Of a stretch of DNA of 47,532 nt, positions 1,988-29,959 are shown in pieces. Source of the DNA: a virus (Duplodnaviria > Heunggongvirae > Uroviricota > Caudoviricetes); IMG/VR virus record IMGVR_UViG_2690316161_000023, positions 1-47,532 of that record. The stretch is one strand, 5' to 3'. Below the pieces are notes generated by a model, which saw nothing but the letters and a program-made list of their open reading frames with translations, searched no databases and was not told the DNA's origin. Within the stretch, counting starts at the first letter, position 1. Every line of letters starts with the position of its first letter. Position numbers and translations under genes: made by a program.

Positions 1988-2520
1988 TTGCTTGTTATTT
2001 CTGCATTTTCATAAACGTTGGTTTGGGAGAAGGCTCTGCATTACCGGTTGGGGTGCCTGTTCCGTGGCCTTCAGCCACTCCGCCAACAGGCTGGCTGAAA
2101 TGCAACGGTGCCGCTTTTTCTGCTGAAGAATACCCGGAACTGGCAAAGGCTTATCCGGCAAATAAATTGCCTGATTTACGTGGTGAGTTTATTCGTGGCT
2201 GGGATGACGGGCGTGGTATTGATGCTGTACGTGCCTTGCTAAGTCTTCAGAATGGAGGAGTGGAATCACACACCCACCAAGGGCAGCTCTTCAGAGTTAG
2301 TGATTATCGTACAAAAGAAATACCAGCATCAGAAGTTATGGGAAGAGGATATATTGCAAGCCTGACGCCGGGTGCTGATAGCCCACTTGATTTTGATGAT
2401 TATCCTGTATCTTCTAATCCAAATGGATATTTTGTCGGGAATCAGAGAACAACAGCATATGGGATAAATGAAACCCGTCCACGGAATATTGCATTTAACT
2501 ATATCGTGAGGGCTGCATAA
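1963..2520 (+). CDS. Alternate tail-fibre C-terminal segment (Sv'-like), not fused to a fibre N-terminus in this copy
   Basis: Residues from [15 protein letters not shown] onward are identical to the C-terminus of the 285-aa fibre at 7502-8359; the upstream part of the ORF is not fibre sequence. Confidence 0.6.
   Translation: MVKAGMMPFACYFCIFINVGLGEGSALPVGVPVPWPSATPPTGWLKCNGAAFSAEEYPELAKAYPANKLPDLRGEFIRGWDDGRGIDAVRALLSLQNGGVESHTHQGQLFRVSDYRTKEIPASEVMGRGYIASLTPGADSPLDFDDYPVSSNPNGYFVGNQRTTAYGINETRPRNIAFNYIVRAA
2006..2031. other. hix/gix-like 26-bp crossover site (outer site of copy A, invertase side)
   Basis: ttttcataaacg-tt-ggtttgggagaa; the ggtttgggagaa half is shared with the site at 7992-8017. 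Confidence 0.5.
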
Positions 2521-3122
2521 TGGATAACGCTGTATTAAATAGCGAGTTTATTGCTACAAAGGCGGGGAATATTACCGTCTATAACTATGATGGCGAAACA
2601 CGGGAATATATTTCCACATCAACTGAATATCTTGCCGTTGGTATCGGTATCCCTGCATATTCCTGTTTAGATGCCCCTGGCACATACAAAGCTGGTTATG
2701 CAATCTGCCGATCTGTAGATTTTAACTCATGGGAATATGTGCCAGACCATCGCGGTGAAATCGTCTTTAGCACCGAAACAGGAGAATCAAAAGAAATCAC
2801 AGCTCCGGGTGATTACCCTGATAATACAACCACTATCGCCCCGTTAACGCCATACGATAAATGGGATGGTGAGAAATGGGTGACGGATACCGAAGCACAG
2901 CATAGCGCCGCAGTAGATGCAGCAGAAGCACAGCGCCAGTCACTGATTGATACTGCAATGGCTTCAATCAGTCTGATTCAGCTGAAATTGCAGGCCGGAC
3001 GTAAACTGACGCAGGCAGAAACAACCAGCCTTAACACTGTGCTGGATTACATTGACGCGGTGACGGCAACAGATACCAGCACCGCGCCGGATGTCATCTG
3101 GCCTGAACTGCCGGAGGCGTAG
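2520..3122 (+). CDS. Tail fibre assembly protein (cognate to the Sv' segment)
   Basis: 200-aa ORF directly after the fibre C-terminal segment; identical copy at 6900-7502. Confidence 0.7.
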   Translation: MDNAVLNSEFIATKAGNITVYNYDGETREYISTSTEYLAVGIGIPAYSCLDAPGTYKAGYAICRSVDFNSWEYVPDHRGEIVFSTETGESKEITAPGDYPDNTTTIAPLTPYDKWDGEKWVTDTEAQHSAAVDAAEAQRQSLIDTAMASISLIQLKLQAGRKLTQAETTSLNTVLDYIDAVTATDTSTAPDVIWPELPEA

Positions 3123-3534
3123 GCCATTCAATATCTGGCGCACTGGCGGTATCGACCAGCTCCAGTGCGCCCAGATAATCCAGCCACAAATTATATTGTG
3201 CCAGTTCCTCACCTTTCAGACGACCAATAGCTGCTTTACCAGGCCATTGCTTACCGTTCATGTAATCATTGGCTAAATCTATTCTTTTTTGCTTCTCCAC
3301 ATCAGCAGCGACAATTAATTCTTCTCGTGTAAGTGGAGGAATATCACCCCATGCTGGCATGTTATTTAAAGTTATAAGTTGCTTACCTGTAGGGGGAGTG
3401 CCGGAAAACTCATAATAAATGCTGTCACTAACGTTAATGGCATCATGTGGCCAACAATTATTATCAACATAATCAGCCTGCCACTCGATGGCATAAAAAC
3501 GGGACTCAGATGGACTGAACACAAAACGATTCAT
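3094..3534 (-). CDS. Tail fibre assembly protein (cognate to the Sv segment)
   Basis: 146-aa ORF directly after the fibre gene 3536-4201; identical copy at 6488-6928. Confidence 0.7.
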   Translation of the reverse strand: MNRFVFSPSESRFYAIEWQADYVDNNCWPHDAINVSDSIYYEFSGTPPTGKQLITLNNMPAWGDIPPLTREELIVAADVEKQKRIDLANDYMNGKQWPGKAAIGRLKGEELAQYNLWLDYLGALELVDTASAPDIEWPTPPAVQAR

Positions 3535-3535
3535 A

Positions 3536-4201
3536 TTAATATCCTATAGCTAAAAACATAGCGTCTGAGGTGTTTGTATTTACAGCAATATTCATCATGA
3601 CCTGAGCGGTAAATCCTGTATTGCTTACCCACTCGCATGAGTTAGTTATCTGAACCCATGTTAATTTGGTAGAAAAAACGCCCCAGCAATTAACAGGGAA
3701 CGGGACAGGGAAAGTCACTGGCACAGAATTTACTACACCGACAGTAGTCAAATTTGCGAGCGTCCGGCGAAACACCTGAATCTTAAGACCATCAGGACCT
3801 GTAAATAACAAATTATCGGTGTACTGCCCGCTTGCTCTTAAACCAAGGTTTTCGAGAGCCGTTTTCACTGTGCCGTCCGATTTGATATCGCCAAACGGAT
3901 TTTTGCGGCTCAGGTATTCAACAGCAAACCCCGATCCAAGCAATTCAACAAAACCGGGCAGATCACCATTATCAAGCACATCCCGTTGCGTTTTGTCACT
4001 TACAAACTGGGCCAGAGCTGCAGCAATAAAGCTGGCCTGTCGAATGGCTTTGTTCACCTGCGCACTGGATGCTTTCCCTGCTGTAAATCCGGATAAAAGC
4101 GCAGGCAACGCTTCCCATTCCTCCTGCGACATAACATTGGCATTTCGATCCGTTGCAAACGCTTTAAAGTCATTTTTCGCCATCAGAGTAATACTCCCCA
4201 T
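3536..4201 (-). CDS. Tail fibre protein, constant N-terminus fused to the Sv variable C-terminus (copy A)
   Basis: 221 aa; first ~120 aa identical to the 285-aa fibre at 7502-8359 and diverging after ...TALENLGL. Confidence 0.72.
   Translation of the reverse strand: MGSITLMAKNDFKAFATDRNANVMSQEEWEALPALLSGFTAGKASSAQVNKAIRQASFIAAALAQFVSDKTQRDVLDNGDLPGFVELLGSGFAVEYLSRKNPFGDIKSDGTVKTALENLGLRASGQYTDNLLFTGPDGLKIQVFRRTLANLTTVGVVNSVPVTFPVPFPVNCWGVFSTKLTWVQITNSCEWVSNTGFTAQVMMNIAVNTNTSDAMFLAIGY
3833..3858. other. hix/gix-like crossover site inside the tail fibre gene (copy A)
   Basis: tgctcttaaacc-aa-ggttttcgagag resembles the recalled Hin hixL site; lies exactly where constant and variable fibre sequence meet. 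Confidence 0.6.
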
Positions 4202-4863
4202 GCTCCTACATCAAAACCACTGATGAATTCGTTATCCATATCAAAACCAAAAAATTTTGAGCCTTCCGATGGGGTTTCCACCGAAGGTGTTTCAATGCCA
4301 CCCGCCCATACCCCGGCGGCTTTTACTGTGAGATACCCCTGTTTAATTGCCGCAATTAACTCACGCGATACATCTGAAATATCAGTATCAGGAAAGACCC
4401 AGACCGATATCGTCATGTCCTGGTTATCGACTATCTGCATTCGCAGCCCGGATCCTGCTGTTGCAGCGTCAAGAATTGCCGGAAGAGAATCATTCCGTCC
4501 ATCCCAGTTATTAATCGCAATCTTCGCTTTAAGAATGACACGATAAGTTTCATCGCTGAGGTACATGTATCCGGAATCAGGATCGTATGGTCCCTGCCAT
4601 ACCCCCTGATCATATCCAAGCCCGTCGGTATCCCAGCTGAAATAGACACCTGAGATAGGCTGGCTGACAACACGGCTACGTCCGATCCACAATCCCAGAA
4701 TGTCAAGTTGCACACCAACCGCAGAGTCAATATCAAATGCAGTAATCAGCCCTCTGGTGGCAGCCGCAACATCAATAAGCGGCCGGGTCATCAGATCAAC
4801 ATGCGCAAGAAATTTAGGTTTAGTGGCGTGGTAGTTCGTGATTAGTTCGGTGTATTTGCTCAT
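4183..4863 (-). CDS. Baseplate/tail protein (Mu gp48 / P2 gpI-like), copy A
   Basis: 226-aa ORF between the baseplate J-like gene and the tail fibre gene; identical copy at 8341-9021. Confidence 0.55.
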   Translation of the reverse strand: MSKYTELITNYHATKPKFLAHVDLMTRPLIDVAAATRGLITAFDIDSAVGVQLDILGLWIGRSRVVSQPISGVYFSWDTDGLGYDQGVWQGPYDPDSGYMYLSDETYRVILKAKIAINNWDGRNDSLPAILDAATAGSGLRMQIVDNQDMTISVWVFPDTDISDVSRELIAAIKQGYLTVKAAGVWAGGIETPSVETPSEGSKFFGFDMDNEFISGFDVGAWGVLL

Positions 4864-6059
4864 GACTCCACCGTTATAACGATATTTTCCGGGGTACAGG
4901 ACGCAGATTCGTTGTATCTGATATCAATGTTTGATGACGACAAAGCCCCCGGGGATTTCCCAATCGTCAGTTCCTGAATATCGTAATAGCGTGCATCCCC
5001 GCCACTCACCACGCCAAGATTCGCCGGTGAGTAAATGCGACTTAAAAGGACCGAATCACCAATCATCAGACTATTGATATAGTCGGAAATAGCCTGCTGG
5101 ATCTGCTGCCCTATCTGTGAGGTATAACCCGTAAAAACTTTTAATTTAATCCGGGCATAAACAGGCACATCACTGGAACGCGAGAATTTGATTACATGGG
5201 GATTGCCGTATTTATCCGGAACCGTAACGGATGTTGTACCGTGAGTGGCTGTCCCCTGGCCTTTATTCCCTCTGATAGCCTGAGCAATATCCGTCACATC
5301 ACCGCCATCCACAATTACAGCAACAGAGTGTGGCGGTAACCCGTTACCGTCCTCCGAACCAGTATCGTTTTCATAGAGTTTGTGGCGGGTTACACCGGTA
5401 ACATTAGAAACAGCACCATCCAGTGCTTCAAATGGGGTTATTGATGGCAACGCAACACTTTGCGACTGACGGATACGTAACTCCGCGTCAGTTTCTGCCG
5501 GAGTGCCCACAGTAGCCGCAGCAGGATTAGTTACCGAAACCCAGCCACGGGTTGGCGTATTAATTTCAGTGATAGTTCCAGCCAGCGCCGCCACTGCACC
5601 ACTGACGGAACATGTTGCGGTCGCCATCACTGTACCATCCACGCCGACCACTACTGAAGCAGGCAAACGCCATATCACATTATTACTGTCTTTCACGCTG
5701 CCATTAATGATGGTTGTTCCGGCAGTTCCTGCAAGAAGCAAATCAACCGTAGAGTTCGTCGCGCCTTTACGTGAAATACCATTTATTTTCACGTTACTGG
5801 TCAGTGCAGCCCCATAGCCGGTTGCCGGTGAAAAACAGTTGTAGACAGTTATCGCCATATTATTGGCATCATGAATCGCCAGCGCCATCAGAGCCACCAT
5901 CTGGCCGTCTTTGCTGTCCGGTTCGAGGTAGGCATCACTGCCATAAATCTGCTGAAAATAGCTAATCAGGGTGCTGAGTATCGTCTGATAATCAGGCGCA
6001 CTGATCCCCTCCGCGGTTACCTTTGCAGATAAACCGAGAGAATCAAGGTTCAGAGCCAT
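4860..6059 (-). CDS. Baseplate J-like protein, copy A
   Basis: 399-aa ORF in the baseplate wedge position; differs from copy B (9018-10217) by one residue (D here, N there). Confidence 0.65.
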   Translation of the reverse strand: MALNLDSLGLSAKVTAEGISAPDYQTILSTLISYFQQIYGSDAYLEPDSKDGQMVALMALAIHDANNMAITVYNCFSPATGYGAALTSNVKINGISRKGATNSTVDLLLAGTAGTTIINGSVKDSNNVIWRLPASVVVGVDGTVMATATCSVSGAVAALAGTITEINTPTRGWVSVTNPAAATVGTPAETDAELRIRQSQSVALPSITPFEALDGAVSNVTGVTRHKLYENDTGSEDGNGLPPHSVAVIVDGGDVTDIAQAIRGNKGQGTATHGTTSVTVPDKYGNPHVIKFSRSSDVPVYARIKLKVFTGYTSQIGQQIQQAISDYINSLMIGDSVLLSRIYSPANLGVVSGGDARYYDIQELTIGKSPGALSSSNIDIRYNESASCTPENIVITVES

Positions 6060-6174
6060 TACGCCTCCGATGTAACAGTCGTTATTCCATAAAGAGTGTC
6101 GATTTCAGCGGAAAACATGACACGTCGGGTCGTGGTATCCACTGTCGTATTGAAAGAGAGGATTGATTTAACGC
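6060..6174 (-). pseudogene. Duplicated 3'-terminal fragment of the gp46-like baseplate gene
   Basis: ~115 bp matching 10218-10332 (last ~37 codons of the 117-aa gene) with no 5' part. Confidence 0.7.
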
Positions 6175-6189
6175 ATTGGTTTAAGAGCA
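6164..6189. other. Duplication junction formed on a crossover-like site
   Basis: tgatttaacgca-tt-ggtttaagagca: gp46 3' sequence joined to the Sv-side half-site. Confidence 0.5.
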
Positions 6190-6210
6190 AGCGGGCAGTA
6201 CACCGATAAT

Positions 6211-6486
6211 TTGTTATTTACAGGTCCTGATGGTCTTAAGATTCAGGTGTTTCGCCGGACGCTCGCAAATTTGACTACTGTCGGTGTAGTAAATTCTGTG
6301 CCAGTGACTTTCCCTGTCCCGTTCCCTGTTAATTGCTGGGGCGTTTTTTCTACCAAATTAACATGGGTTCAGATAACTAACTCATGCGAGTGGGTAAGCA
6401 ATACAGGATTTACCGCTCAGGTCATGATGAATATTGCTGTAAATACAAACACCTCAGACGCTATGTTTTTAGCTATAGGATATTAA
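6211..6486 (+). CDS. Sv-type tail fibre C-terminal segment, inverted and unfused (copy B)
   Basis: 91 aa identical to the C-terminus of the fibre at 3536-4201 but on the opposite strand; homology begins at the site near 6178. Confidence 0.6.
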   Translation: MLFTGPDGLKIQVFRRTLANLTTVGVVNSVPVTFPVPFPVNCWGVFSTKLTWVQITNSCEWVSNTGFTAQVMMNIAVNTNTSDAMFLAIGY

Positions 6487-6487
6487 T

Positions 6488-6928
6488 ATGAATCGTTTTG
6501 TGTTCAGTCCATCTGAGTCCCGTTTTTATGCCATCGAGTGGCAGGCTGATTATGTTGATAATAATTGTTGGCCACATGATGCCATTAACGTTAGTGACAG
6601 CATTTATTATGAGTTTTCCGGCACTCCCCCTACAGGTAAGCAACTTATAACTTTAAATAACATGCCAGCATGGGGTGATATTCCTCCACTTACACGAGAA
6701 GAATTAATTGTCGCTGCTGATGTGGAGAAGCAAAAAAGAATAGATTTAGCCAATGATTACATGAACGGTAAGCAATGGCCTGGTAAAGCAGCTATTGGTC
6801 GTCTGAAAGGTGAGGAACTGGCACAATATAATTTGTGGCTGGATTATCTGGGCGCACTGGAGCTGGTCGATACCGCCAGTGCGCCAGATATTGAATGGCC
6901 TACGCCTCCGGCAGTTCAGGCCAGATGA
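6488..6928 (+). CDS. Tail fibre assembly protein, inverted copy (copy B)
   Basis: Identical to 3094-3534, opposite strand. Confidence 0.7.
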   Translation: MNRFVFSPSESRFYAIEWQADYVDNNCWPHDAINVSDSIYYEFSGTPPTGKQLITLNNMPAWGDIPPLTREELIVAADVEKQKRIDLANDYMNGKQWPGKAAIGRLKGEELAQYNLWLDYLGALELVDTASAPDIEWPTPPAVQAR

Positions 6929-7502
6929 CATCCGGCGCGGTGCTGGTATCTGTTGCCGTCACCGCGTCAATGTAATCCAGCACAGTGTTAAGGCTGGTTG
7001 TTTCTGCCTGCGTCAGTTTACGTCCGGCCTGCAATTTCAGCTGAATCAGACTGATTGAAGCCATTGCAGTATCAATCAGTGACTGGCGCTGTGCTTCTGC
7101 TGCATCTACTGCGGCGCTATGCTGTGCTTCGGTATCCGTCACCCATTTCTCACCATCCCATTTATCGTATGGCGTTAACGGGGCGATAGTGGTTGTATTA
7201 TCAGGGTAATCACCCGGAGCTGTGATTTCTTTTGATTCTCCTGTTTCGGTGCTAAAGACGATTTCACCGCGATGGTCTGGCACATATTCCCATGAGTTAA
7301 AATCTACAGATCGGCAGATTGCATAACCAGCTTTGTATGTGCCAGGGGCATCTAAACAGGAATATGCAGGGATACCGATACCAACGGCAAGATATTCAGT
7401 TGATGTGGAAATATATTCCCGTGTTTCGCCATCATAGTTATAGACGGTAATATTCCCCGCCTTTGTAGCAATAAACTCGCTATTTAATACAGCGTTATCC
7501 AT
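6900..7502 (-). CDS. Tail fibre assembly protein cognate to Sv' (copy B)
   Basis: Identical to 2520-3122, opposite strand. Confidence 0.7.
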   Translation of the reverse strand: MDNAVLNSEFIATKAGNITVYNYDGETREYISTSTEYLAVGIGIPAYSCLDAPGTYKAGYAICRSVDFNSWEYVPDHRGEIVFSTETGESKEITAPGDYPDNTTTIAPLTPYDKWDGEKWVTDTEAQHSAAVDAAEAQRQSLIDTAMASISLIQLKLQAGRKLTQAETTSLNTVLDYIDAVTATDTSTAPDVIWPELPEA

Positions 7503-8359
7503 TATGCAGCCCTCACGATATAGTTAAATGCAATATTCCGTGGACGGGTTTCATTTATCCCATATGCTGTTGTTCTCTGATTCCCGACAAAATATCCATT
7601 TGGATTAGAAGATACAGGATAATCATCAAAATCAAGTGGGCTATCAGCACCCGGCGTCAGGCTTGCAATATATCCTCTTCCCATAACTTCTGATGCTGGT
7701 ATTTCTTTTGTACGATAATCACTAACTCTGAAGAGCTGCCCTTGGTGGGTGTGTGATTCCACTCCTCCATTCTGAAGACTTAGCAAGGCACGTACAGCAT
7801 CAATACCACGCCCGTCATCCCAGCCACGAATAAACTCACCACGTAAATCAGGCAATTTATTTGCCGGATAAGCCTTTGCCAGTTCCGGGTATTCTTCAGC
7901 AGAAAAAGCGGCACCGTTGCATTTCAGCCAGCCTGTTGGCGGAGTGGCTGAAGGCCACGGAACAGGCACCCCAACCGGTAATGCAGAGCCTTCTCCCAAA
8001 CCAAGGTTTTCGAGAGCCGTTTTCACTGTGCCGTCCGATTTGATATCGCCAAACGGATTTTTGCGGCTCAGGTATTCAACAGCAAACCCCGATCCAAGCA
8101 ATTCAACAAAACCGGGCAGATCACCATTATCAAGCACATCCCGTTGCGTTTTGTCACTTACAAACTGGGCCAGAGCTGCAGCAATAAAGCTGGCCTGTCG
8201 AATGGCTTTGTTCACCTGCGCACTGGATGCTTTCCCTGCTGTAAATCCGGATAAAAGCGCAGGCAACGCTTCCCATTCCTCCTGCGACATAACATTGGCA
8301 TTTCGATCCGTTGCAAACGCTTTAAAGTCATTTTTCGCCATCAGAGTAATACTCCCCAT
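7502..8359 (-). CDS. Tail fibre protein, constant N-terminus fused to the Sv' variable C-terminus (copy B)
   Basis: 285 aa; same N-terminus as 3536-4201; C-terminus identical to the segment at 2020-2520. Confidence 0.72.
7992..8017. other. hix/gix-like crossover site inside the tail fibre gene (copy B)
   Basis: ttctcccaaacc-aa-ggttttcgagag. Confidence 0.6.
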
Positions 8360-9021
8360 GCTCCTACATCAAAACCACTGATGAATTCGTTATCCATATC
8401 AAAACCAAAAAATTTTGAGCCTTCCGATGGGGTTTCCACCGAAGGTGTTTCAATGCCACCCGCCCATACCCCGGCGGCTTTTACTGTGAGATACCCCTGT
8501 TTAATTGCCGCAATTAACTCACGCGATACATCTGAAATATCAGTATCAGGAAAGACCCAGACCGATATCGTCATGTCCTGGTTATCGACTATCTGCATTC
8601 GCAGCCCGGATCCTGCTGTTGCAGCGTCAAGAATTGCCGGAAGAGAATCATTCCGTCCATCCCAGTTATTAATCGCAATCTTCGCTTTAAGAATGACACG
8701 ATAAGTTTCATCGCTGAGGTACATGTATCCGGAATCAGGATCGTATGGTCCCTGCCATACCCCCTGATCATATCCAAGCCCGTCGGTATCCCAGCTGAAA
8801 TAGACACCTGAGATAGGCTGGCTGACAACACGGCTACGTCCGATCCACAATCCCAGAATGTCAAGTTGCACACCAACCGCAGAGTCAATATCAAATGCAG
8901 TAATCAGCCCTCTGGTGGCAGCCGCAACATCAATAAGCGGCCGGGTCATCAGATCAACATGCGCAAGAAATTTAGGTTTAGTGGCGTGGTAGTTCGTGAT
9001 TAGTTCGGTGTATTTGCTCAT
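8341..9021 (-). CDS. Baseplate/tail protein (Mu gp48 / P2 gpI-like), copy B
   Basis: Identical to 4183-4863. Confidence 0.55.
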
Positions 9022-10217
9022 GACTCCACCGTTATAACGATATTTTCCGGGGTACAGGACGCAGATTCGTTGTATCTGATATCAATGTTTGATGACGACA
9101 AAGCCCCCGGGGATTTCCCAATCGTCAGTTCCTGAATATCGTAATAGCGTGCATTCCCGCCACTCACCACGCCAAGATTCGCCGGTGAGTAAATGCGACT
9201 TAAAAGGACCGAATCACCAATCATCAGACTATTGATATAGTCGGAAATAGCCTGCTGGATCTGCTGCCCTATCTGTGAGGTATAACCCGTAAAAACTTTT
9301 AATTTAATCCGGGCATAAACAGGCACATCACTGGAACGCGAGAATTTGATTACATGGGGATTGCCGTATTTATCCGGAACCGTAACGGATGTTGTACCGT
9401 GAGTGGCTGTCCCCTGGCCTTTATTCCCTCTGATAGCCTGAGCAATATCCGTCACATCACCGCCATCCACAATTACAGCAACAGAGTGTGGCGGTAACCC
9501 GTTACCGTCCTCCGAACCAGTATCGTTTTCATAGAGTTTGTGGCGGGTTACACCGGTAACATTAGAAACAGCACCATCCAGTGCTTCAAATGGGGTTATT
9601 GATGGCAACGCAACACTTTGCGACTGACGGATACGTAACTCCGCGTCAGTTTCTGCCGGAGTGCCCACAGTAGCCGCAGCAGGATTAGTTACCGAAACCC
9701 AGCCACGGGTTGGCGTATTAATTTCAGTGATAGTTCCAGCCAGCGCCGCCACTGCACCACTGACGGAACATGTTGCGGTCGCCATCACTGTACCATCCAC
9801 GCCGACCACTACTGAAGCAGGCAAACGCCATATCACATTATTACTGTCTTTCACGCTGCCATTAATGATGGTTGTTCCGGCAGTTCCTGCAAGAAGCAAA
9901 TCAACCGTAGAGTTCGTCGCGCCTTTACGTGAAATACCATTTATTTTCACGTTACTGGTCAGTGCAGCCCCATAGCCGGTTGCCGGTGAAAAACAGTTGT
10001 AGACAGTTATCGCCATATTATTGGCATCATGAATCGCCAGCGCCATCAGAGCCACCATCTGGCCGTCTTTGCTGTCCGGTTCGAGGTAGGCATCACTGCC
10101 ATAAATCTGCTGAAAATAGCTAATCAGGGTGCTGAGTATCGTCTGATAATCAGGCGCACTGATCCCCTCCGCGGTTACCTTTGCAGATAAACCGAGAGAA
10201 TCAAGGTTCAGAGCCAT
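9018..10217 (-). CDS. Baseplate J-like protein, copy B
   Basis: 399 aa; one substitution relative to copy A. Confidence 0.65.
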   Translation of the reverse strand: MALNLDSLGLSAKVTAEGISAPDYQTILSTLISYFQQIYGSDAYLEPDSKDGQMVALMALAIHDANNMAITVYNCFSPATGYGAALTSNVKINGISRKGATNSTVDLLLAGTAGTTIINGSVKDSNNVIWRLPASVVVGVDGTVMATATCSVSGAVAALAGTITEINTPTRGWVSVTNPAAATVGTPAETDAELRIRQSQSVALPSITPFEALDGAVSNVTGVTRHKLYENDTGSEDGNGLPPHSVAVIVDGGDVTDIAQAIRGNKGQGTATHGTTSVTVPDKYGNPHVIKFSRSSDVPVYARIKLKVFTGYTSQIGQQIQQAISDYINSLMIGDSVLLSRIYSPANLGVVSGGNARYYDIQELTIGKSPGALSSSNIDIRYNESASCTPENIVITVES

Positions 10218-10570
10218 TACGCCTCCGATGTAACAGTCGTTATTCCATAAAGAGTGTCGATTTCAGCGGAAAACATGACACGTCGGGTCGTGGTATCCAC
10301 TGTCGTATTGAAAGAGAGGATTGATTTAACGCCCCGCGTTTCGAGGATGCGCTTACGGATCGCCAGGTTGTAGGTTTCCGGCTTCTGCTTTCCGAGCACG
10401 GACTGGATCCACGGAGTCCCTTCGGTGGTGTCGAGAAACCATTGCCCATACCACAATTCGAATCGCGTTTTTACCGCCTGCGCCACGGCCTCCGGTGAGT
10501 TAATCAGCCAGGTGTCATCACCGCTGCCAAAGGTGTAATCGCCATCGGCGTCTTCACGTCTGTATCGCAT
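10217..10570 (-). CDS. Baseplate protein (P2 gpW / Mu gp46-like)
   Basis: 117-aa ORF between the gpV-like and J-like genes. Confidence 0.55.
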   Translation of the reverse strand: MRYRREDADGDYTFGSGDDTWLINSPEAVAQAVKTRFELWYGQWFLDTTEGTPWIQSVLGKQKPETYNLAIRKRILETRGVKSILSFNTTVDTTTRRVMFSAEIDTLYGITTVTSEA

Positions 10571-13485: not shown

Positions 13486-14072
13486 TAGCCGCCCCCCAGT
13501 AATGACGCCACGTTACCCGTGATGCTTTTCAGCAGTGAAGTATCTGGAGGTTTTGTGGTTTTGTTGCCGCTGTTCTGTACCGCCGACGTGCTGGCCCCTT
13601 CCTTCATGTTGGTTTTATCCGCGACGGTAATCTGCTGTGTCCGGGAGATAATGACCTCCCTCAGGGTGAGGACGGCGGACAGGACGTTTTCGCTTGTCTT
13701 GTCCGTCGTCACTTCCAGCGCCCGGATCAACATGTTGCTGTACAGCCGTTTACCGGTTACCACATCGAAGGGGATACGGCTTTCCTGCAGATCCAGTAGC
13801 TCCTGATACGTCTGCTGAGGACTCAGGCCGAGCAGGCTGGTAGCCGTCAGGTTACTGGCAAAATCCAGCAATGCGCCGCCACCGGCGAAACCAACCTCCA
13901 TCACCACTTCTGACGGTTTTTTATAGGCATGATCAGCGACAGCGGCCCCGACCTCTACCGGATGCTCGGTTATTTCAAGCATATCTGTATGCTTCTCTGA
14001 AATAACAACACTGGGAACAATCATTCCTATTTTTCTGCTCTGCTGATGAAAAAGTGTAGAGAGAATATCCAC
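13485..14072 (-). CDS. Hypothetical tail protein
   Basis: 195-aa ORF directly after the tape measure gene. Confidence 0.4.
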   Translation of the reverse strand: MDILSTLFHQQSRKIGMIVPSVVISEKHTDMLEITEHPVEVGAAVADHAYKKPSEVVMEVGFAGGGALLDFASNLTATSLLGLSPQQTYQELLDLQESRIPFDVVTGKRLYSNMLIRALEVTTDKTSENVLSAVLTLREVIISRTQQITVADKTNMKEGASTSAVQNSGNKTTKPPDTSLLKSITGNVASLLGGG

Positions 14073-16081
14073 TAACCCACCCTCACCTGATTACTTCGCA
14101 TGACCTGAGCATTTGCAGACTGTTGCCGACGTGCAACCTCATTACCGACAGCGTGCGGATCTCCGCCACCGTAAATGTGGTAGGTATTTTGCTGGTTAAC
14201 CTCTGTCACTTTGCCACTAATTCCCGCCACGGCAGCCTTATTAATCAGCTCCCGAGAATAGATATTTCTTCCATTCTCATGCTGGATAATGCTGCTCATC
14301 AATGCTGACATGGTTTGCGGATCGCTCATATTCAGGGCAGCCCGGGAATCCACTCCCAGTCGTTGCGATACAGCCCTGATATACGCAGTTGTGTTGTTAT
14401 TATCAGACGCAGGAGCCCAGGTAGAGATAATTTTCTCCACACTGTTTATTCCCCGTCCAGCGTACAGCATTAACTGACGAGCAAGAGCCCGTAATCCATC
14501 AAAGGCAGTTTCAAATCTGGCAAATCGCCCGCCCGGGCGTTCAAGAGAAGCCCCTGCCTGACCAGCAAAATTAAGGTTTCCCGGATTGTTATTCCGTTCT
14601 CCTCGTTTCGTAGCCTGTGCATGTTGTTCCGGCTCATCATCACCAAACCAGCCGCGTACCGTCCGGCCCACACTGCGGGGATCGAATCCCCAGTGCTCTT
14701 TAATCCAGTCGGCAGTACTGTTAGCGCTGTCTGTAACCATCGGCATCGCTGACGGATTTTCGCTGCCCTGATTAAGTATCTGTTTGCCGATGCTGACGGC
14801 ATCAGCCCAGCGGCCATCTTTGATAGCGTTGAGCAGGTCAGCGATCATGTTCAGCATTTTGCTGAATTCGCCCATCTGGTCGATGAAGTTGCTGAAATCC
14901 CACTTCAGGGACCATGATTTGGGGTCAATATTGAGCAGTTTCGCCAGCGCTTTCACCAGGTCGTTAACGGTCGTTTTAAGGTCACGAACCATCTTCAGCG
15001 CGGCATCGACCTCCGGTTTCCACTTGCCCCAGTCAATCAGGCTGTCGCCGCCTTCCTTCCAGGTCTGATAGTCCTCCCACAGGAGGGCAATACCCGCCGC
15101 CAGCGCGGTAATGAGGCCAATCGGCGACATCCAGAACGTACTGTTCAGAATGCGCAGCGCAATCGTCAGTGCGCCAAACAGCGAGATCAACTCCCGCGTT
15201 TGCTTATCCAGCGATTGCCACCAGGTGATAAGGCCTGATGTCCCCTCAATCAGTCTGAAGAACAGCCGCCCAATAATATCCCCGAGCGCCAGAATGCCTT
15301 TTATGGCTTTCGTCAGGGTCTGCTCGATACGAGGGAAGTTGTCCAGGATATGGCGGCGCAGGGTGTCCAGCGAACCCGCAAGCCCCCCCGCAAGATTAGA
15401 GCCGATTTTGTCACGGGCCATGCCTGCCATCGCGCCAAACTCACGCAGGGAGGTCATAAATTTGTTGGAGCTTCTGGCCGCCTCGTCAGCATTGAAGCCG
15501 ATAGCTTTCGCCATTGCGCTGTACTGCCCGGAGAAGCCACCCACACCCCGGCGCATCGCCATAAGGGTATTTTCGTCAATGCCCAGCATCTGCGCATACT
15601 GGTTAGCCCGGTAATACGGCATGCTGCTGAGTTTCTGTCCAACGCCCGTAAAAATAGCGGCCATGTCACGCATGTTACCGCTGGCATCACGGGTCTGTAC
15701 GCCCAGGCGATTCAGAAAGCCTTCTGCACCGGGATTGTTACGAATAAACCGGGAGAGGCTTTCCAGAGAAGATCGCGCAGCGTCCACGCTGCCGCCAACC
15801 TGCGAAACCGCATAGCCAATAGACTGAATTCCCTGGACTGTCGCGCCGGTGCGCTGTGACGCCCAGTAAAGATTATCCAGGCCGGAGGCGATCTTAGCCG
15901 TGAAGGCCACCACGGACAGCGCAGCTCCTTCAACAGCCAGCCCCATTTTGATGACATTTGCAGTTGTACCGGCGAGGACAGAACCGAACTTTTTCGCTCC
16001 TGCATCATCCACACTGAAGCCAAGCGAGACGAGGAAATCTTTAATAGTTTCAGCGTTCATTATCCTCTCTCCATTTCTCAA
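14072..16081 (-). CDS. Tail tape measure protein
   Basis: 669-aa ORF after the tube and chaperone genes; ORF call starts on TTG, a downstream ATG (MNAETIKD, about 16060) is the likelier start. Confidence 0.7.
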   Translation of the reverse strand: MRNGERIMNAETIKDFLVSLGFSVDDAGAKKFGSVLAGTTANVIKMGLAVEGAALSVVAFTAKIASGLDNLYWASQRTGATVQGIQSIGYAVSQVGGSVDAARSSLESLSRFIRNNPGAEGFLNRLGVQTRDASGNMRDMAAIFTGVGQKLSSMPYYRANQYAQMLGIDENTLMAMRRGVGGFSGQYSAMAKAIGFNADEAARSSNKFMTSLREFGAMAGMARDKIGSNLAGGLAGSLDTLRRHILDNFPRIEQTLTKAIKGILALGDIIGRLFFRLIEGTSGLITWWQSLDKQTRELISLFGALTIALRILNSTFWMSPIGLITALAAGIALLWEDYQTWKEGGDSLIDWGKWKPEVDAALKMVRDLKTTVNDLVKALAKLLNIDPKSWSLKWDFSNFIDQMGEFSKMLNMIADLLNAIKDGRWADAVSIGKQILNQGSENPSAMPMVTDSANSTADWIKEHWGFDPRSVGRTVRGWFGDDEPEQHAQATKRGERNNNPGNLNFAGQAGASLERPGGRFARFETAFDGLRALARQLMLYAGRGINSVEKIISTWAPASDNNNTTAYIRAVSQRLGVDSRAALNMSDPQTMSALMSSIIQHENGRNIYSRELINKAAVAGISGKVTEVNQQNTYHIYGGGDPHAVGNEVARRQQSANAQVMRSNQVRVG

Positions 16082-16289
16082 TGCGTCGCTGGTTATCCGC
16101 TTTTACCGCCAGATGGTCATTCAAGAGAGCAATGTCATACAAATCGACAGAGCCATCTTTAAGTGCTGTATAAGGAATTAACCCGGCGTCAACCGGATTG
16201 AGAAGGTAGGACAGCCCGTCCGGCAGGCTGTTAAACGTCAGCCCTGTTGCAGGCTCTGCGTCGTGCTGGTAAGGGGTGTAGGCAAAAAA
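16050..16289 (-). other. Predicted -1 frameshift extension of the tail assembly chaperone
   Basis: Slippery heptamer T_TTT_TTG about 16283-16289, nine codons before the chaperone stop; the -1 frame stays open ~79 codons and stops just after the tape measure ATG. Confidence 0.5.
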
Positions 16290-16690
16290 TTTCCCAGCGA
16301 ATCGGCGACCACCCGCGCCACCAGTTGCAGCATGACCAGCAGGTCAATATCATCAAACATCAGTTCACCCTGGGTAAATACCGGCACCCATCCGTCCATA
16401 TGACGCCGCGATACCACCGCAAGACAGGGATGAATAATCGCATCGGTGTCATCTTCGGTCAGGGAAGACAGTTCCTCAGCGATACGCGGGAGCATGGTTT
16501 CAAACACCGGTTTTAACTGTTCGAATTTCACGGTGTCGATTTTGCCGTCAGCAGGCAAACGGGAGCGAATACTCCCGAAATCTGACATCATTCCTGCCAG
16601 CACCGGCAGAAGTTTGCGGGTCACTTTCAGCTGGTCAAAAACGCTGAGTTTTGCCGTGCGATATTTCACGCCTTTAATTTCGAATTCCAT
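16238..16690 (-). CDS. Tail assembly chaperone
   Basis: 150-aa ORF between the tube and tape measure genes. Confidence 0.6.
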   Translation of the reverse strand: MEFEIKGVKYRTAKLSVFDQLKVTRKLLPVLAGMMSDFGSIRSRLPADGKIDTVKFEQLKPVFETMLPRIAEELSSLTEDDTDAIIHPCLAVVSRRHMDGWVPVFTQGELMFDDIDLLVMLQLVARVVADSLGNFLPTPLTSTTQSLQQG

Positions 16691-16693
16691 GTA

Positions 16694-17134
16694 TTAAAAC
16701 TCCCCGAGAACCTGGTCAATCTTGCCGCAGTCAAACACCCACGGCATCGTATTACCGGTTTTAGCGTTGGCGTTATCCGGTTGTTTCTGGAACGCAACAC
16801 TGCGTGCCGTGATGATGTCGCCGCTGACCTTGTTGCGGATCACGATAACGTTATTCCCCCATGTGGCAGAAGACTGGCTCTGTGCGTTATACGCCAGCGA
16901 CAATTTTTTATTTGTCGGTGATGTCTTCAGAAGGTTAACGGTAATCGTCCCGCTTTTATCTGCATGGAGGCTGTGCATCACTTCACCATCAGCACCGATG
17001 GTCATGGTGTTTTTAGGACCACCCATCGCAACCACAATCCCCTCTTCAGAACTTGCCGAACCGTACCCGAGGTCAATCGAACCGGTCGGCCCGGTCAGCG
17101 TCGCAGTGACATCCATAAAAGAATAGGTAGACAT
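16694..17134 (-). CDS. Tail tube protein
   Basis: 146-aa ORF directly after the sheath gene. Confidence 0.55.
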   Translation of the reverse strand: MSTYSFMDVTATLTGPTGSIDLGYGSASSEEGIVVAMGGPKNTMTIGADGEVMHSLHADKSGTITVNLLKTSPTNKKLSLAYNAQSQSSATWGNNVIVIRNKVSGDIITARSVAFQKQPDNANAKTGNTMPWVFDCGKIDQVLGEF

Positions 17135-17144
17135 TCACTTCCCC

Positions 17145-18290
17145 TTAGCGAACAACGTTAATCTGTACGTCAGCGTAATGAACCGCGCCTGCAAGTTTTA
17201 TTGCAGCCTGAATCACCGGAGCCTTACGGGCTTCACGTTCTGATTGTGCCTGTTCATCCAGCGGCTGGGCGTATACGTAATAACCTTTGGGCAGCGTGTC
17301 ACCTGATGACAACTGGCCAAGGTCGCCCCCGTTCCATACGCCCGGAGCAATCAGTCCATTCTGAACGGCCTGATCCAGTGATTTTTCAACATTTGATAAC
17401 AGTCGGGTAATACCGGCTTCAGTCTGGGGAACTTTCGTGGTGCTGGTATAAAGCAGGTTATAGAGGCTGGTCTGCACATAATTCTGTAACCAGTCCAGGC
17501 CGTGGCGTTCATCAAAGAAATCGCCGTTAGCCATCACTCCCTGCTGGAGGATAGCCGTATCATTCTGGTAGTACACGAACACATTGCAGTTTTTTGCATC
17601 AAGTGCCGATGCCTGGCTGACTGTCAGTGTTTCATACCCGACACCCGGCTCCTGCTTAAACTTGAGCGTAATCGCGGTATTACTGCCATTGAAATTAACC
17701 GTGAATGCCCGGCCAAATGCAGATAACGCAGCGTATTTATTACCCGATGAATACTGAATAAAACTGCGTGAATATCCGGCGGTTTTCAGTTTTGATGCCA
17801 AATCATCTCTGGATGCAGTCTGCAGGCATTTCTCATCGCTTGTCGTAATCGCCAGAATACGGCTTACAGAAGAGGATTCGATCGCCGCAGCCACTTGCAG
17901 CCAGTCTGCATCCGGAATATCTGCATCGTCTGCAATCCCCAGCCCATACCATGAAGTATAATCAAGCATGGCATTCACAGCCTGCTCCAGCGTCTCAGGC
18001 GTGGCCTGTTCGCTGTCTCCCTTCGTTTTCACCCAACGACCAACAAAAACCTCCTGAGGTTTCGGTGATTGTGAGAAAAACACCTGCGCAGCCTTATATT
18101 CTGGTGATTCCACGCCAAAATCTTTTCCAATATCTTCCGCGGCAGAATAACGGCGAATGCGCTCACTTACCGGAATGATTGTGGATGGGCCGAGAATGAG
18201 TAATGCACCAAAATTTCGCCCTGATGCTGCACGCGGCGACATGATCACATCAACATTAACAACGTTTGATACAGGCAAGCCCTGTGCCAT
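17145..18290 (-). CDS. Tail sheath protein
   Basis: 381-aa ORF preceding tube, chaperone and tape measure genes. Confidence 0.55.
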
Positions 18291-29377: not shown

Positions 29378-29959
29378 TTAAAGCTGCATCAACCTTTCCA
29401 CCAGTTTATCTCTGCGAACAACAAACCAACCATTGGCTCTCGCCAGTTCCAGCCATGACTCAAGGGAAATAACAATATCATCATCCCGCAACTGAATTGT
29501 GGAAACAGTGACACCGCCTCGCTGATAACAGAGAACTCGCGTGTCGTAACTTTTCTGGCATGAAACTGGCGCTGACGGATCCTTTTGTCTGAAATAGCAG
29601 TCTTCCAGCTTTTCGAACACATCCCACGCCTGATCGGTTTCGAGCATTTTGGCATGACGGGCTGCTCCGCGTTCTGTCCAGAGGATGAGGGAGCGGGCTT
29701 TCGGGGAAATTTGTAACCCTCTTAAAGATGGTTGCAAATTTTGTGAGTAGTTTAAAGCTACCCGCAAATTTTTCAGGGCATCACCAGCCACTTTGAAAAA
29801 ATGCTTTCCTTCAATAAAGCGCTCAGCATTTCTGGCGTAGTTATTTTGAATGTTCTTAACTTCAGCACCGTACAACTGCGCCAAAAGTTCGGTGGTAATA
29901 ACAGGAATCTGGTTATGGGTGATCGGGGAGAGAGTTTCAACAGAAATTTGAGTTGTCAT
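29378..29959 (-). CDS. ORF6N/KilA-N-like (antirepressor-type) domain protein
   Basis: 193 aa; N-terminus LAQLYGAEVKNIQNNYARNAERFIEGKHFFKV typical of the domain; lies between the late promoter and the lysis genes. Confidence 0.45.
   Translation of the reverse strand: MTTQISVETLSPITHNQIPVITTELLAQLYGAEVKNIQNNYARNAERFIEGKHFFKVAGDALKNLRVALNYSQNLQPSLRGLQISPKARSLILWTERGAARHAKMLETDQAWDVFEKLEDCYFRQKDPSAPVSCQKSYDTRVLCYQRGGVTVSTIQLRDDDIVISLESWLELARANGWFVVRRDKLVERLMQL

Follow-up and report, generated by a model that had tools for sequence, protein, structure and literature searches.

Long-tailed phages make two forms of their tail assembly chaperone by a −1 frameshift, and the ratio between the two forms controls tail assembly. 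In the class to which lambda G/GT and P2 belong, both forms share a common N-terminus and are made at a fixed ratio, and both are needed for tails while neither is present in the virion. For lambda, PMC5009743 (Levin et al. 1993; Xu et al. 2004, 2013, 2014) describes a short and a long chaperone with a common N-terminus, the long one arising from a −1 shift that takes place at low level close to the end of the upstream ORF. In lambda, which has a non-contractile tail, the gene is flanked by the major tail gene and the tape measure gene, as it is here. The E/E+E′ pair of P2, an E. coli phage with a contractile tail, has TTTTTTG near the end of its short ORF as at the present locus (Christie et al. 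2002, cited in PMC3091744). PMC3091744 reports that P2 shifts at TTTTTTG without a downstream hairpin, with tail genes on one side of the −1 extension and the tape measure gene on the other. The P2 proteins measure 91 and 142 aa, against 150 and 213 aa here, and the P2 frameshift is experimentally proven whereas the present one is proposed from sequence comparison.

A recent comparative argument of the same kind concerns the TAC-N/TAC-NC locus of Pakpunavirus (phage Adele) and Andersonviridae (PMC12846349), where a downstream “hypothetical gene” was put forward as the C-terminal part of the chaperone, read in the −1 frame, and a GTTTTT motif is invariant. That set is made up of lytic Pseudomonas and other phages, and we liken it to our locus for its argument, chaperone homology aside. 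Two homologues of the chaperone itself already carry a frameshift annotation, Klebsiella phage Mulock (CPT_Mulock_014/015, MN098327) and Burkholderia phage Magia (CPT_Magia_015/016, MT701587), with tblastn identities to the long form of 59% and 36%, respectively, over the matched part. In both, at the same gene position, curators entered a two-piece joined CDS as “tape measure chaperone” and “frameshift product”; this annotation was made by curators and not from experiments, and the frameshift goes unmentioned in the Mulock genome paper. The closest relatives, vB_EcoM-606R2, YP3 and SEN34, and the RefSeq E. coli genomes have no frameshift annotated. Our literature search returned no paper mentioning DUF6889, the domain encoded by the −1 frame, and no Brunovirus or SEN34 paper treating the chaperone.

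The locus lies in a window (the whole stretch of DNA that was analysed) of 47,532 nucleotides from a prophage whose host is E. coli. Its features, all on the minus strand, are as follows.

16694..17134 (−), tail tube gene, directly upstream of the chaperone gene (Pfam PF11681, KPP10_Orf10 = Phage_Tube_PhiTE, E=9e-61)
16238..16690 (−), CDS of the short-form tail assembly chaperone, 150 aa, zero frame, counterpart of lambda gpG and P2 E (ORF list and translation)
16283..16295 (−), slippery run G_GGA_AAT_TTT_TTG, three overlapping in-phase heptamers (phase check)
16289..16283 (−), T_TTT_TTG heptamer (zero-frame codons AAT TTT TTG, X_XXY_YYZ phase)
16238..16282 (−), two-frame overlap of the short-form zero-frame tail (14 codons and stop) with the start of the −1 extension
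16050..16289 (−), −1 frame extension, 79 codons and TGA (translation)
16059..16175 (−), DUF6889 domain, long-form residues 173-211 (Pfam PF21829)
16060..16058 (−), ATG of the tape measure gene, with GGAGAGAGGA before it
16052..16050 (−), TGA ending the −1 frame
14072..16060 (−), tape measure protein gene (weak Pfam PhageMin_Tail match)

The gene order on the minus strand is tail tube, chaperone and tape measure, the position that chaperone genes of this class occupy. The Pfam family that the tube protein matches takes its name from the phage KPP10 tube protein. The −1 ORF and the tape measure gene overlap by 11 nt, and the PGAP annotation of NZ_CP122448 places the tape measure ATG at the identical codon. 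The initial annotation of this DNA had proposed a T_TTT_TTG slippery heptamer in a tail assembly chaperone, followed by a −1 frame open for about 79 codons and ending at a TGA just past the tape measure ATG. All of this agrees with the coordinates above, the 79 codons being counted from the first TTT. It had put the heptamer nine codons before the chaperone stop, which is wrong, as 14 sense codons (PTPLTSTTQSLQQG) separate TTG and the stop.

The identity of the chaperone was likewise upheld. The 150-aa protein matches Pfam Phage_TAC_15 (PF21822) over residues 6-136 with 108.6 bits (E=4e-31; gathering threshold 22 bits) and PHROG 1688, “tail assembly chaperone”. A search of solved structures (PDB) and NCBIfam returned no relatives. 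Joining residues 1-134 to the −1 extension gives by translation a long form of 213 aa, the size that had been anticipated for the fused product. The −1 part of this fusion matches Pfam DUF6889 (PF21829) over residues 173-211 with 70.6 bits (E=9e-20; gathering threshold 23.9 bits) and PHROG 4364 (E=1e-22), and it has no start codon of its own. The parallel with P2 E/E+E′ drawn in the initial annotation is a fitting one. In Pfam, searched at E<=0.01, the sole families hit are Phage_TAC_15 and DUF6889, with no match to lambda-type G or T families and no sequence relationship detected to P2 E. What the locus has in common with lambda gpG/gpT and P2 E is its arrangement and mechanism, and not a protein family. 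AlphaFold2 run on the long form with a 30-sequence alignment gave a pLDDT of 41.3 and a pTM of 0.23, too poor for a fold search. Because this prediction is unusable, the tube-binding role suggested for DUF6889 is drawn from analogy.

A slippery heptamer by itself says little. The window holds 70 in-phase X_XXY_YYZ heptamers across 62 long ORFs, so the presence of this one is not beyond chance. A heptamer with a long −1 frame (>=79 codons) running beyond the zero-frame stop occurs at only three places in the window; of the other two, one continues into an overlapping gene that follows it and one is a broken invertase gene. What decides in favour of the proposed frameshift site is its conservation in relatives, and the survival of the −1 frame in related phages was also the test that the initial annotation had set for itself. 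The locus passes this test. The comparison set was made up of 60 distinct relatives (49-88% identity), and every one of them has the T run in phase and a −1 frame that stays open over 77-84 codons and varies with a coding periodicity. Entropies at the three codon positions are 0.73/0.55/1.39 in the −1 frame vs 0.81/0.53/1.42 in the chaperone body across the 60 relatives, and the excess at the third position equals that of the chaperone body. In the two-frame overlap the values are 0.85/0.76/1.31 and the variation tracks the −1 frame, with the zero-frame tail of the short form poorly conserved. The −1 frame is thus under coding constraint.

These data bear directly on the possibility of mere chance, in which an in-phase heptamer without biological role happens to adjoin an intergenic spacer whose −1 frame is open. 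The abundance of in-phase heptamers noted above would allow such a coincidence, as would the failure to find a stimulatory structure (see below). It is contradicted by the conservation of the site and of the −1 ORF, with its coding periodicity, across Enterobacterales, by the match of the −1 frame to a Pfam domain, and by 40 phage records, recovered by tblastn, in which each half recurs in its own frame, among them phages of Burkholderia, Acinetobacter, Bordetella and Ralstonia. We rejected this explanation and give it practically no weight. Among complete E. coli genomes, 350 of the 5426 searched have the locus, which many other Enterobacterales contain as well.

The −1 ORF could also be a separate small gene, translated from its own start with no change of frame. 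RefSeq lists it in this way, as a CTG-initiated gene for a 54-aa “DUF6889 family protein”; in older records it goes under the name “NTP pyrophosphohydrolase”, and the closest phage records have no annotation there. In favour of this interpretation, a CDS of this kind is annotated by PGAP in E. coli genomes, and PHROG 4364 exists alongside many database entries with lengths of 43-78 aa. The start codons speak against it. CTG stands at the column of the PGAP start in 13 of the 60 relatives and Glu in 43, and database entries of near-identical sequences begin at no fewer than six different N-termini (at least six). ATG, GTG and TTG are absent from the first 16 −1 codons after the slip site in 60/60 relatives. 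Conserved residues begin right at the slip site (R138 in 59/60, P140 in 60/60), so that conservation and codon periodicity start upstream of every annotated start and 25 codons upstream of the PGAP CTG. Moreover, in distant lineages DUF6889 is fused in frame to the chaperone domain: seven distant proteins have both halves in one ORF, with both Pfam domains detected in six of them. As no conserved start codon was found, the stand-alone gene was rejected and we regard it as very improbable.

The favoured reading, a shift of frame within the chaperone gene, is supported by the slippery run itself. The heptamers G_GGA_AAT, A_AAT_TTT and T_TTT_TTG overlap in phase at 16295..16283; the first two had escaped the initial annotation. 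G_GGA_AAT resembles the slippery heptamer of lambda, G_GGA_AAG, and the locus differs from lambda in having a triple heptamer that ends in six T's. The six T's are invariant and in phase in all 60 distinct relatives, and the full 13-mer is retained in 48; Mulock has the identical 13-mer (GGGAAATTTTTTG). Among the IMG/VR relatives 79 were scored as having six T's, and the remaining one (L139) shows six in its printed sequence too. Synonymous codon choice at the run is frozen: the ratio of TTT to TTC is 60:0 at the Phe of the run vs 26:34 and 27:33 at invariant Phe columns elsewhere, and the other codons are TTG for Leu in 56/56, GGA for Gly in 54/60 and AAT for Asn in 54/54. This pattern demonstrates selection on the nucleotides of the run.

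Alternatively, RNA polymerase, rather than the ribosome, might change the frame by inserting an extra U at the six T's, so that a minority of mRNAs encode the same 213-aa protein. One extra T in the DNA does yield the exact fusion, the T run is the most conserved element, and runs of U7 and A7 have been noted as slippage-prone (PMC4066793). A Logan contig (L005) in which seven T's replace the six encodes exactly the 213-aa fusion in a single frame; it is used here as an illustration only, since the seventh T may be a homopolymer sequencing error. Against this reading, six T's are shorter than the runs known for appreciable slippage in E. coli. Distant homologues also argue against polymerase slippage. 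At the same NLGxF motif, relatives of about 30-39% identity have other canonical heptamers, namely C_CCT_TTT, G_GGT_TTT_TTC, T_TTT_TTT or G_GGA_AAT alone. In Magia, unlike the present locus, and in BgManors32 the in-phase heptamer at the same codon is C_CCT_TTT, with only four T's, and in Bordetella phage IFTN9 it is G_GGA_AAT, without a T run. Such sites fit re-pairing of tRNAs and not slippage of the polymerase. The synonymous positions of the upstream G_GGA_AAT are frozen as well. We consider transcriptional slippage improbable.

As for where the frame changes, three lineages have a −1 frame stop (TAG, TAA or TGA) directly 5′ of the T run, so the slip is confined to the T run there. A canonical two-tRNA slip on T_TTT_TTG predicts the junction ...GNFL-AYTPY... 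and the other registers predict ...GNFF-AYTPY...; either A_AAU_UUU or U_UUU_UUG could be the shift site. E. coli reporter tests found U_UUG to be a weak A-site tetramer and U_UUU_UUG to fall outside the efficient heptamers (PMC4066793), and the overlapping A_AAT_TTT may be the more efficient register in this host (PMC4066793). Given these reporter results, either efficiency at U_UUU_UUG is probably low or A_AAU_UUU does much of the work.

No stimulatory RNA element was recognised. The downstream structure search recommended in the initial annotation gave no conserved structure: the consensus fold of 30 relatives reached −0.26 kcal/mol with 2 pairs, and fold z-scores of the 60 individual relatives had a median of −0.18, both for pseudoknot-free folding. 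Single-sequence folds of the window itself scored z −0.76 and −1.17. No SD-like element is seen 6-17 nt upstream of the run. The locus thus differs from stimulated signals of the dnaX or IS3 type, in which the heptamer is followed at 5-9 nt by a hairpin or pseudoknot or preceded by an SD-like element, as far as pseudoknot-free folding can reveal.

Taken together, our results make it highly probable that a −1 frameshift produces a short and a long chaperone at this locus. Most ribosomes would stay in the zero frame, which yields the 150-aa short chaperone. Some, a minority, would slip back by one base on G_GGA_AAU_UUU_UUG and read about 78 further codons in the −1 frame. The resulting 213-aa long form would carry DUF6889 in its C-terminal part, and its reading frame would stop shortly after the start of the tape measure gene. 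From the precedents of lambda G/GT and P2 E/E+E′ we infer that the change of frame is ribosomal and its efficiency low, a few percent. The same parallels suggest that the N-terminal part common to both forms covers the tape measure protein and that the tail tube protein is brought in by the C-terminal domain, which would make DUF6889 the “T-like” C-terminal domain of the long form. More tentatively, we speculate that the 13-nt triple-heptamer run is a multi-register slip site setting the short:long ratio without RNA structure, and that DUF6889 serves as the “T domain” that recruits the tube protein in a large group of temperate phages of Proteobacteria with contractile tails. If true, the multi-register site would be a refinement of a known mechanism and not a new one.

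The frameshift arrangement is already known in kind, and the only new point is that databases label its second half as a separate gene of unknown function. As judged from sequence, Pfam DUF6889 and PHROG 4364 (“unknown function”) both represent the C-terminal portion that Phage_TAC_15 chaperones gain from the −1 frame. The value of this result lies in the correction of annotation: joining both parts would fix the existing entries and give DUF6889 a testable role.

The genes of the tail region of the window all run in the minus-strand direction and are arranged as follows.

18290..17145, minus, tail sheath gene (DUF3383 / E217_gp31)
17134..16694, minus, tail tube gene (PF11681, E=9e-61)
16690..16238, minus, chaperone ORF of 150 aa (Pfam Phage_TAC_15, E=4e-31; PHROG 1688 "tail assembly chaperone")
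Between the chaperone ORF and the tape measure gene, minus, 177-nt stretch without a called gene
ATG at 16060, minus, tape measure gene, with GGAGAGAGGA ahead of the ATG
After the tape measure gene in gene order, minus, Dit-like, plug and hub genes

The initial annotation had proposed a canonical -1 frameshift site in the chaperone gene, and T_TTT_TTG is indeed found at 16289..16283 in X_XXY_YYZ phase (zero-frame codons CTG GGA AAT TTT TTG). Two further in-phase heptamers, G_GGA_AAT and A_AAT_TTT, precede and overlap it, the three together spanning 16295..16283. From T_TTT_TTG onwards the -1 frame has 79 open codons, as had been described, up to a TGA (16052..16050) that falls 11 nt past the A of the tape measure ATG, giving a fusion of 213 aa. 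The chaperone stop, placed there nine codons downstream, actually follows 14 sense codons after TTG. The location of the Phage_TAC_15 ORF between the tube and tape measure genes, together with a DUF6889 domain in the -1 frame, supports the interpretation as a tail chaperone frameshift.

The heptamer by itself is not beyond chance, so the case leans on the content and conservation of the -1 frame. The 62 long ORFs of the whole window hold 70 in-phase heptamers, and at only three places does the -1 frame at a heptamer run for at least 79 codons and beyond the zero-frame stop: the chaperone locus, 13485, where the frame merely continues into the next overlapping gene, and 1598-1987 in a broken invertase gene. 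A 193-aa ORF (29378-29959, minus) contains three in-phase heptamers (AAATTTG, TTTAAAC, AAATTTG) after which the -1 frame is open for 86-96 codons wholly within the gene; chance or a wrongly chosen frame may explain this.

A frame change splits the serine invertase/resolvase gene (1400-1987, minus; Pfam Resolvase N-domain, E=5e-37): its 129-aa ORF ends early while the -1 frame runs on for 81 codons, and the gene happens to hold an in-phase T_TTT_TTC. The break lies near 1632-1655, close to CCAATGGCCGTTTCTTTTTTCATG, and, judging from Hin/Gin-family sequences, resembles a 1-nt deletion in a G run; the gene is either a pseudogene or affected by a sequencing error. Adjoining it, the cassette for the tail-fibre C-terminus and fibre assembly is found in both orientations. 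A perfect 1834-nt inverted repeat (2013-3846 / 6176-8009) and a direct repeat of ~2.35 kb with close to 100% identity (about 3830-6190 / 7988-10350) give the window two copies each of the baseplate J, DUF2612 and tail-fibre N-terminal genes. The repeats stem either from a genuine duplication or from an invertible tail-fibre segment of which the assembly holds both orientations.

The fused translation matched DUF6889 in Pfam (residues 173-211; 70.6 bits, E=9e-20) as well as PHROG 4364. We compared 60 distinct homologous loci with 49-88% identity to the long form of the window: its own locus, those of three phages, and 56 from genomes of different species. Six T's in the same phase were found in all 60 (TTTTTTG 56, TTTTTTT 3, TTTTTTC 1), and in all of them the -1 frame is open for 77-84 codons, which bears out its expected conservation. 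Past the zero-frame stop its nucleotide variability by codon position is 0.73/0.55/1.39 bits, the same signature as in the zero-frame chaperone body (0.81/0.53/1.42 bits), and inside the 14-codon overlap it is 0.85/0.76/1.31 bits. Amino-acid conservation begins at the slip site (F135, F136 and P140 in 60/60, R138 in 59/60). Taken together these patterns indicate that the -1 frame is coding.

In E. coli genomes RefSeq/PGAP lists this part as a gene of its own, a "DUF6889 family protein" of 54 aa; the locus was found in 350 of 5426 complete E. coli genomes searched. In NZ_CP122448.1 (1487-1651, corresponding to window 16214-16050 minus) the -1 ORF is annotated as a stand-alone CDS starting with CTG. 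Yet the column of the RefSeq CTG start holds CTG in only 13 of 60 relatives and Glu in 43, and in none of the 60 do the first 16 codons after the slip site include ATG, GTG or TTG. Near-identical database sequences moreover have at least six start points (MAYTPY, MTLNSLPDG, MLNSLPDG, MPDGLSY, MSYLLNP, MDPVDAG), a scatter that looks like gene callers imposing a start on an ORF without one. We therefore rejected the separate gene. Some entries for DUF6889 fragments carry the name "NTP pyrophosphohydrolase".

Codon usage shows that the slippery run is selected at the nucleotide level. Both Phe codons of the slip site are TTT in 60:0, whereas two other invariant Phe columns have TTT:TTC ratios of 26:34 and 27:33. 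The zero-frame Leu is TTG in 56/56 where CTG dominates conserved Leu columns elsewhere, Asn134 is AAT in 54/54 against mixed usage elsewhere, and Gly133 is GGA in 54/60 against 7-20 of 60 in other invariant Gly columns. The six-T run is the universal element across the Enterobacterales set, and A_AAT_TTT is present in 53/60 relatives. The T run of three lineages directly follows a stop in the -1 frame (TAG, TAA or TGA), so that a shift is possible there only on the run.

Slippage of the polymerase, adding one extra U, would yield the same protein. A Logan contig with seven T's (L005) does encode the 213-aa fusion in a single frame, although a homopolymer error is possible; six T's were counted in 79 of 80 IMG/VR relatives, and the 80th (L139) also has six in its printed sequence. 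A 159-aa protein of NCBI source (P0066; homologue of 16238-16690) reads GNFCPNSLPARRR past the slip site, much like a +1 frame reading of the locus, as with a T run one base shorter. P0066 and L005 suggest occasional variation in T-run length or sequencing error. Both halves in two frames were found by tblastn in 40 phage records with identity down to ~30%. At the same NLGxF motif these distant relatives mostly keep an in-phase heptamer at the same codon though the base run is not kept, as predicted by tRNA re-pairing and not by polymerase slippage. The Burkholderia phages Magia and BgManors32 have C_CCT_TTT with only four T's, Bordetella phage IFTN9 has G_GGA_AAT alone, a Ralstonia phage G_GGT_TTT_TTC, a Providencia phage T_TTT_TTT and Acinetobacter phage AbTJ A_AAT_TTT. 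In Edwardsiella ZHS and Burkholderia E192a the last 50 codons lack a canonical heptamer and have only a U_UUU tetramer at the same codon. As this evidence is indirect, transcriptional slippage keeps a small share of probability. Ribosomal -1 frameshifting very probably makes the long form, and some frame change at the slippery run almost certainly does.

With the single-frame fusion of L005 as query, an exhaustive HMMER search gave 1358 cluster representatives. Among the 150 matches listed most are 130-160 aa, with matches ending at query residues 136-142, the slip site. At least seven representatives (191-210 aa, 29-33% identical) cover the two halves in a single ORF and have their junction at this same position, and Pfam found both domains in six of seven; the fused architecture thus exists without recoding in other lineages. 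In a distant lineage (Logan contig SRR24974064, 2501-3133) Phage_TAC_15 and DUF6889 share one 210-aa ORF without a frameshift, after a 674-aa ORF and before genes on the opposite strand, an order unlike that of the window.

The search for downstream structure gave no conserved stimulator. In the window the region downstream of the slip site did not fold better than shuffled sequences (z -0.76 and -1.17), the consensus of 30 relatives had 2 pairs at -0.26 kcal/mol, and the z-scores of 60 sequences had a median of -0.18. No SD-like sequence was seen 6-17 nt upstream of the window's heptamer. For phage P2 E/E+E' a shift at the same TTTTTTG and no hairpin are reported (PMC3091744), matching the situation here. 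In E. coli reporter work H_HH.U_UU.Y heptamers, including A_AAU_UUU, are among the efficient ones and U_UUG is a weak A-site tetramer (PMC4066793), so A_AAU_UUU, where present, may carry much of the shifting. The two registers predict unlike junction residues, Phe-Phe or Phe-Leu. Lambda has a G:GT ratio of ~30:1, which is critical (PMC5009743), and by analogy a low shift efficiency would suit the function.

If the system works as in lambda, the short chaperone and the N-part of its long counterpart would coat the tape measure protein, and the rare long form would recruit the tube protein through its C-terminal DUF6889. Tube and then sheath would polymerise around the tape measure, and neither chaperone form would remain in the virion. 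An AlphaFold2 model of the long form was unusable (pLDDT 41) and no relatives were found among solved structures. By Pfam scan lambda G/T and P2 E have no sequence relationship to this chaperone, whereas Klebsiella phage Mulock (identical 13-mer, 59% identity) and Burkholderia phage Magia have true homologues. In GenBank the joins of Mulock and Magia are curated as "tape measure chaperone frameshift product". For Pakpunavirus, with a GTTTTT motif, a 2025 paper argued along the same lines (PMC12846349). Since homologues carry curated joins and the arrangement is the classic one described by Xu, Hendrix and Duda (2004; cited in PMC5009743 and PMC3091744), the finding is real but ordinary, already known in kind and in family. 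The 177-nt stretch is empty in the records of the nearest relatives (vB_EcoM-606R2, YP3, SEN34) and mislabelled in RefSeq. Our contribution is therefore a correction of annotation and a likely role for DUF6889.
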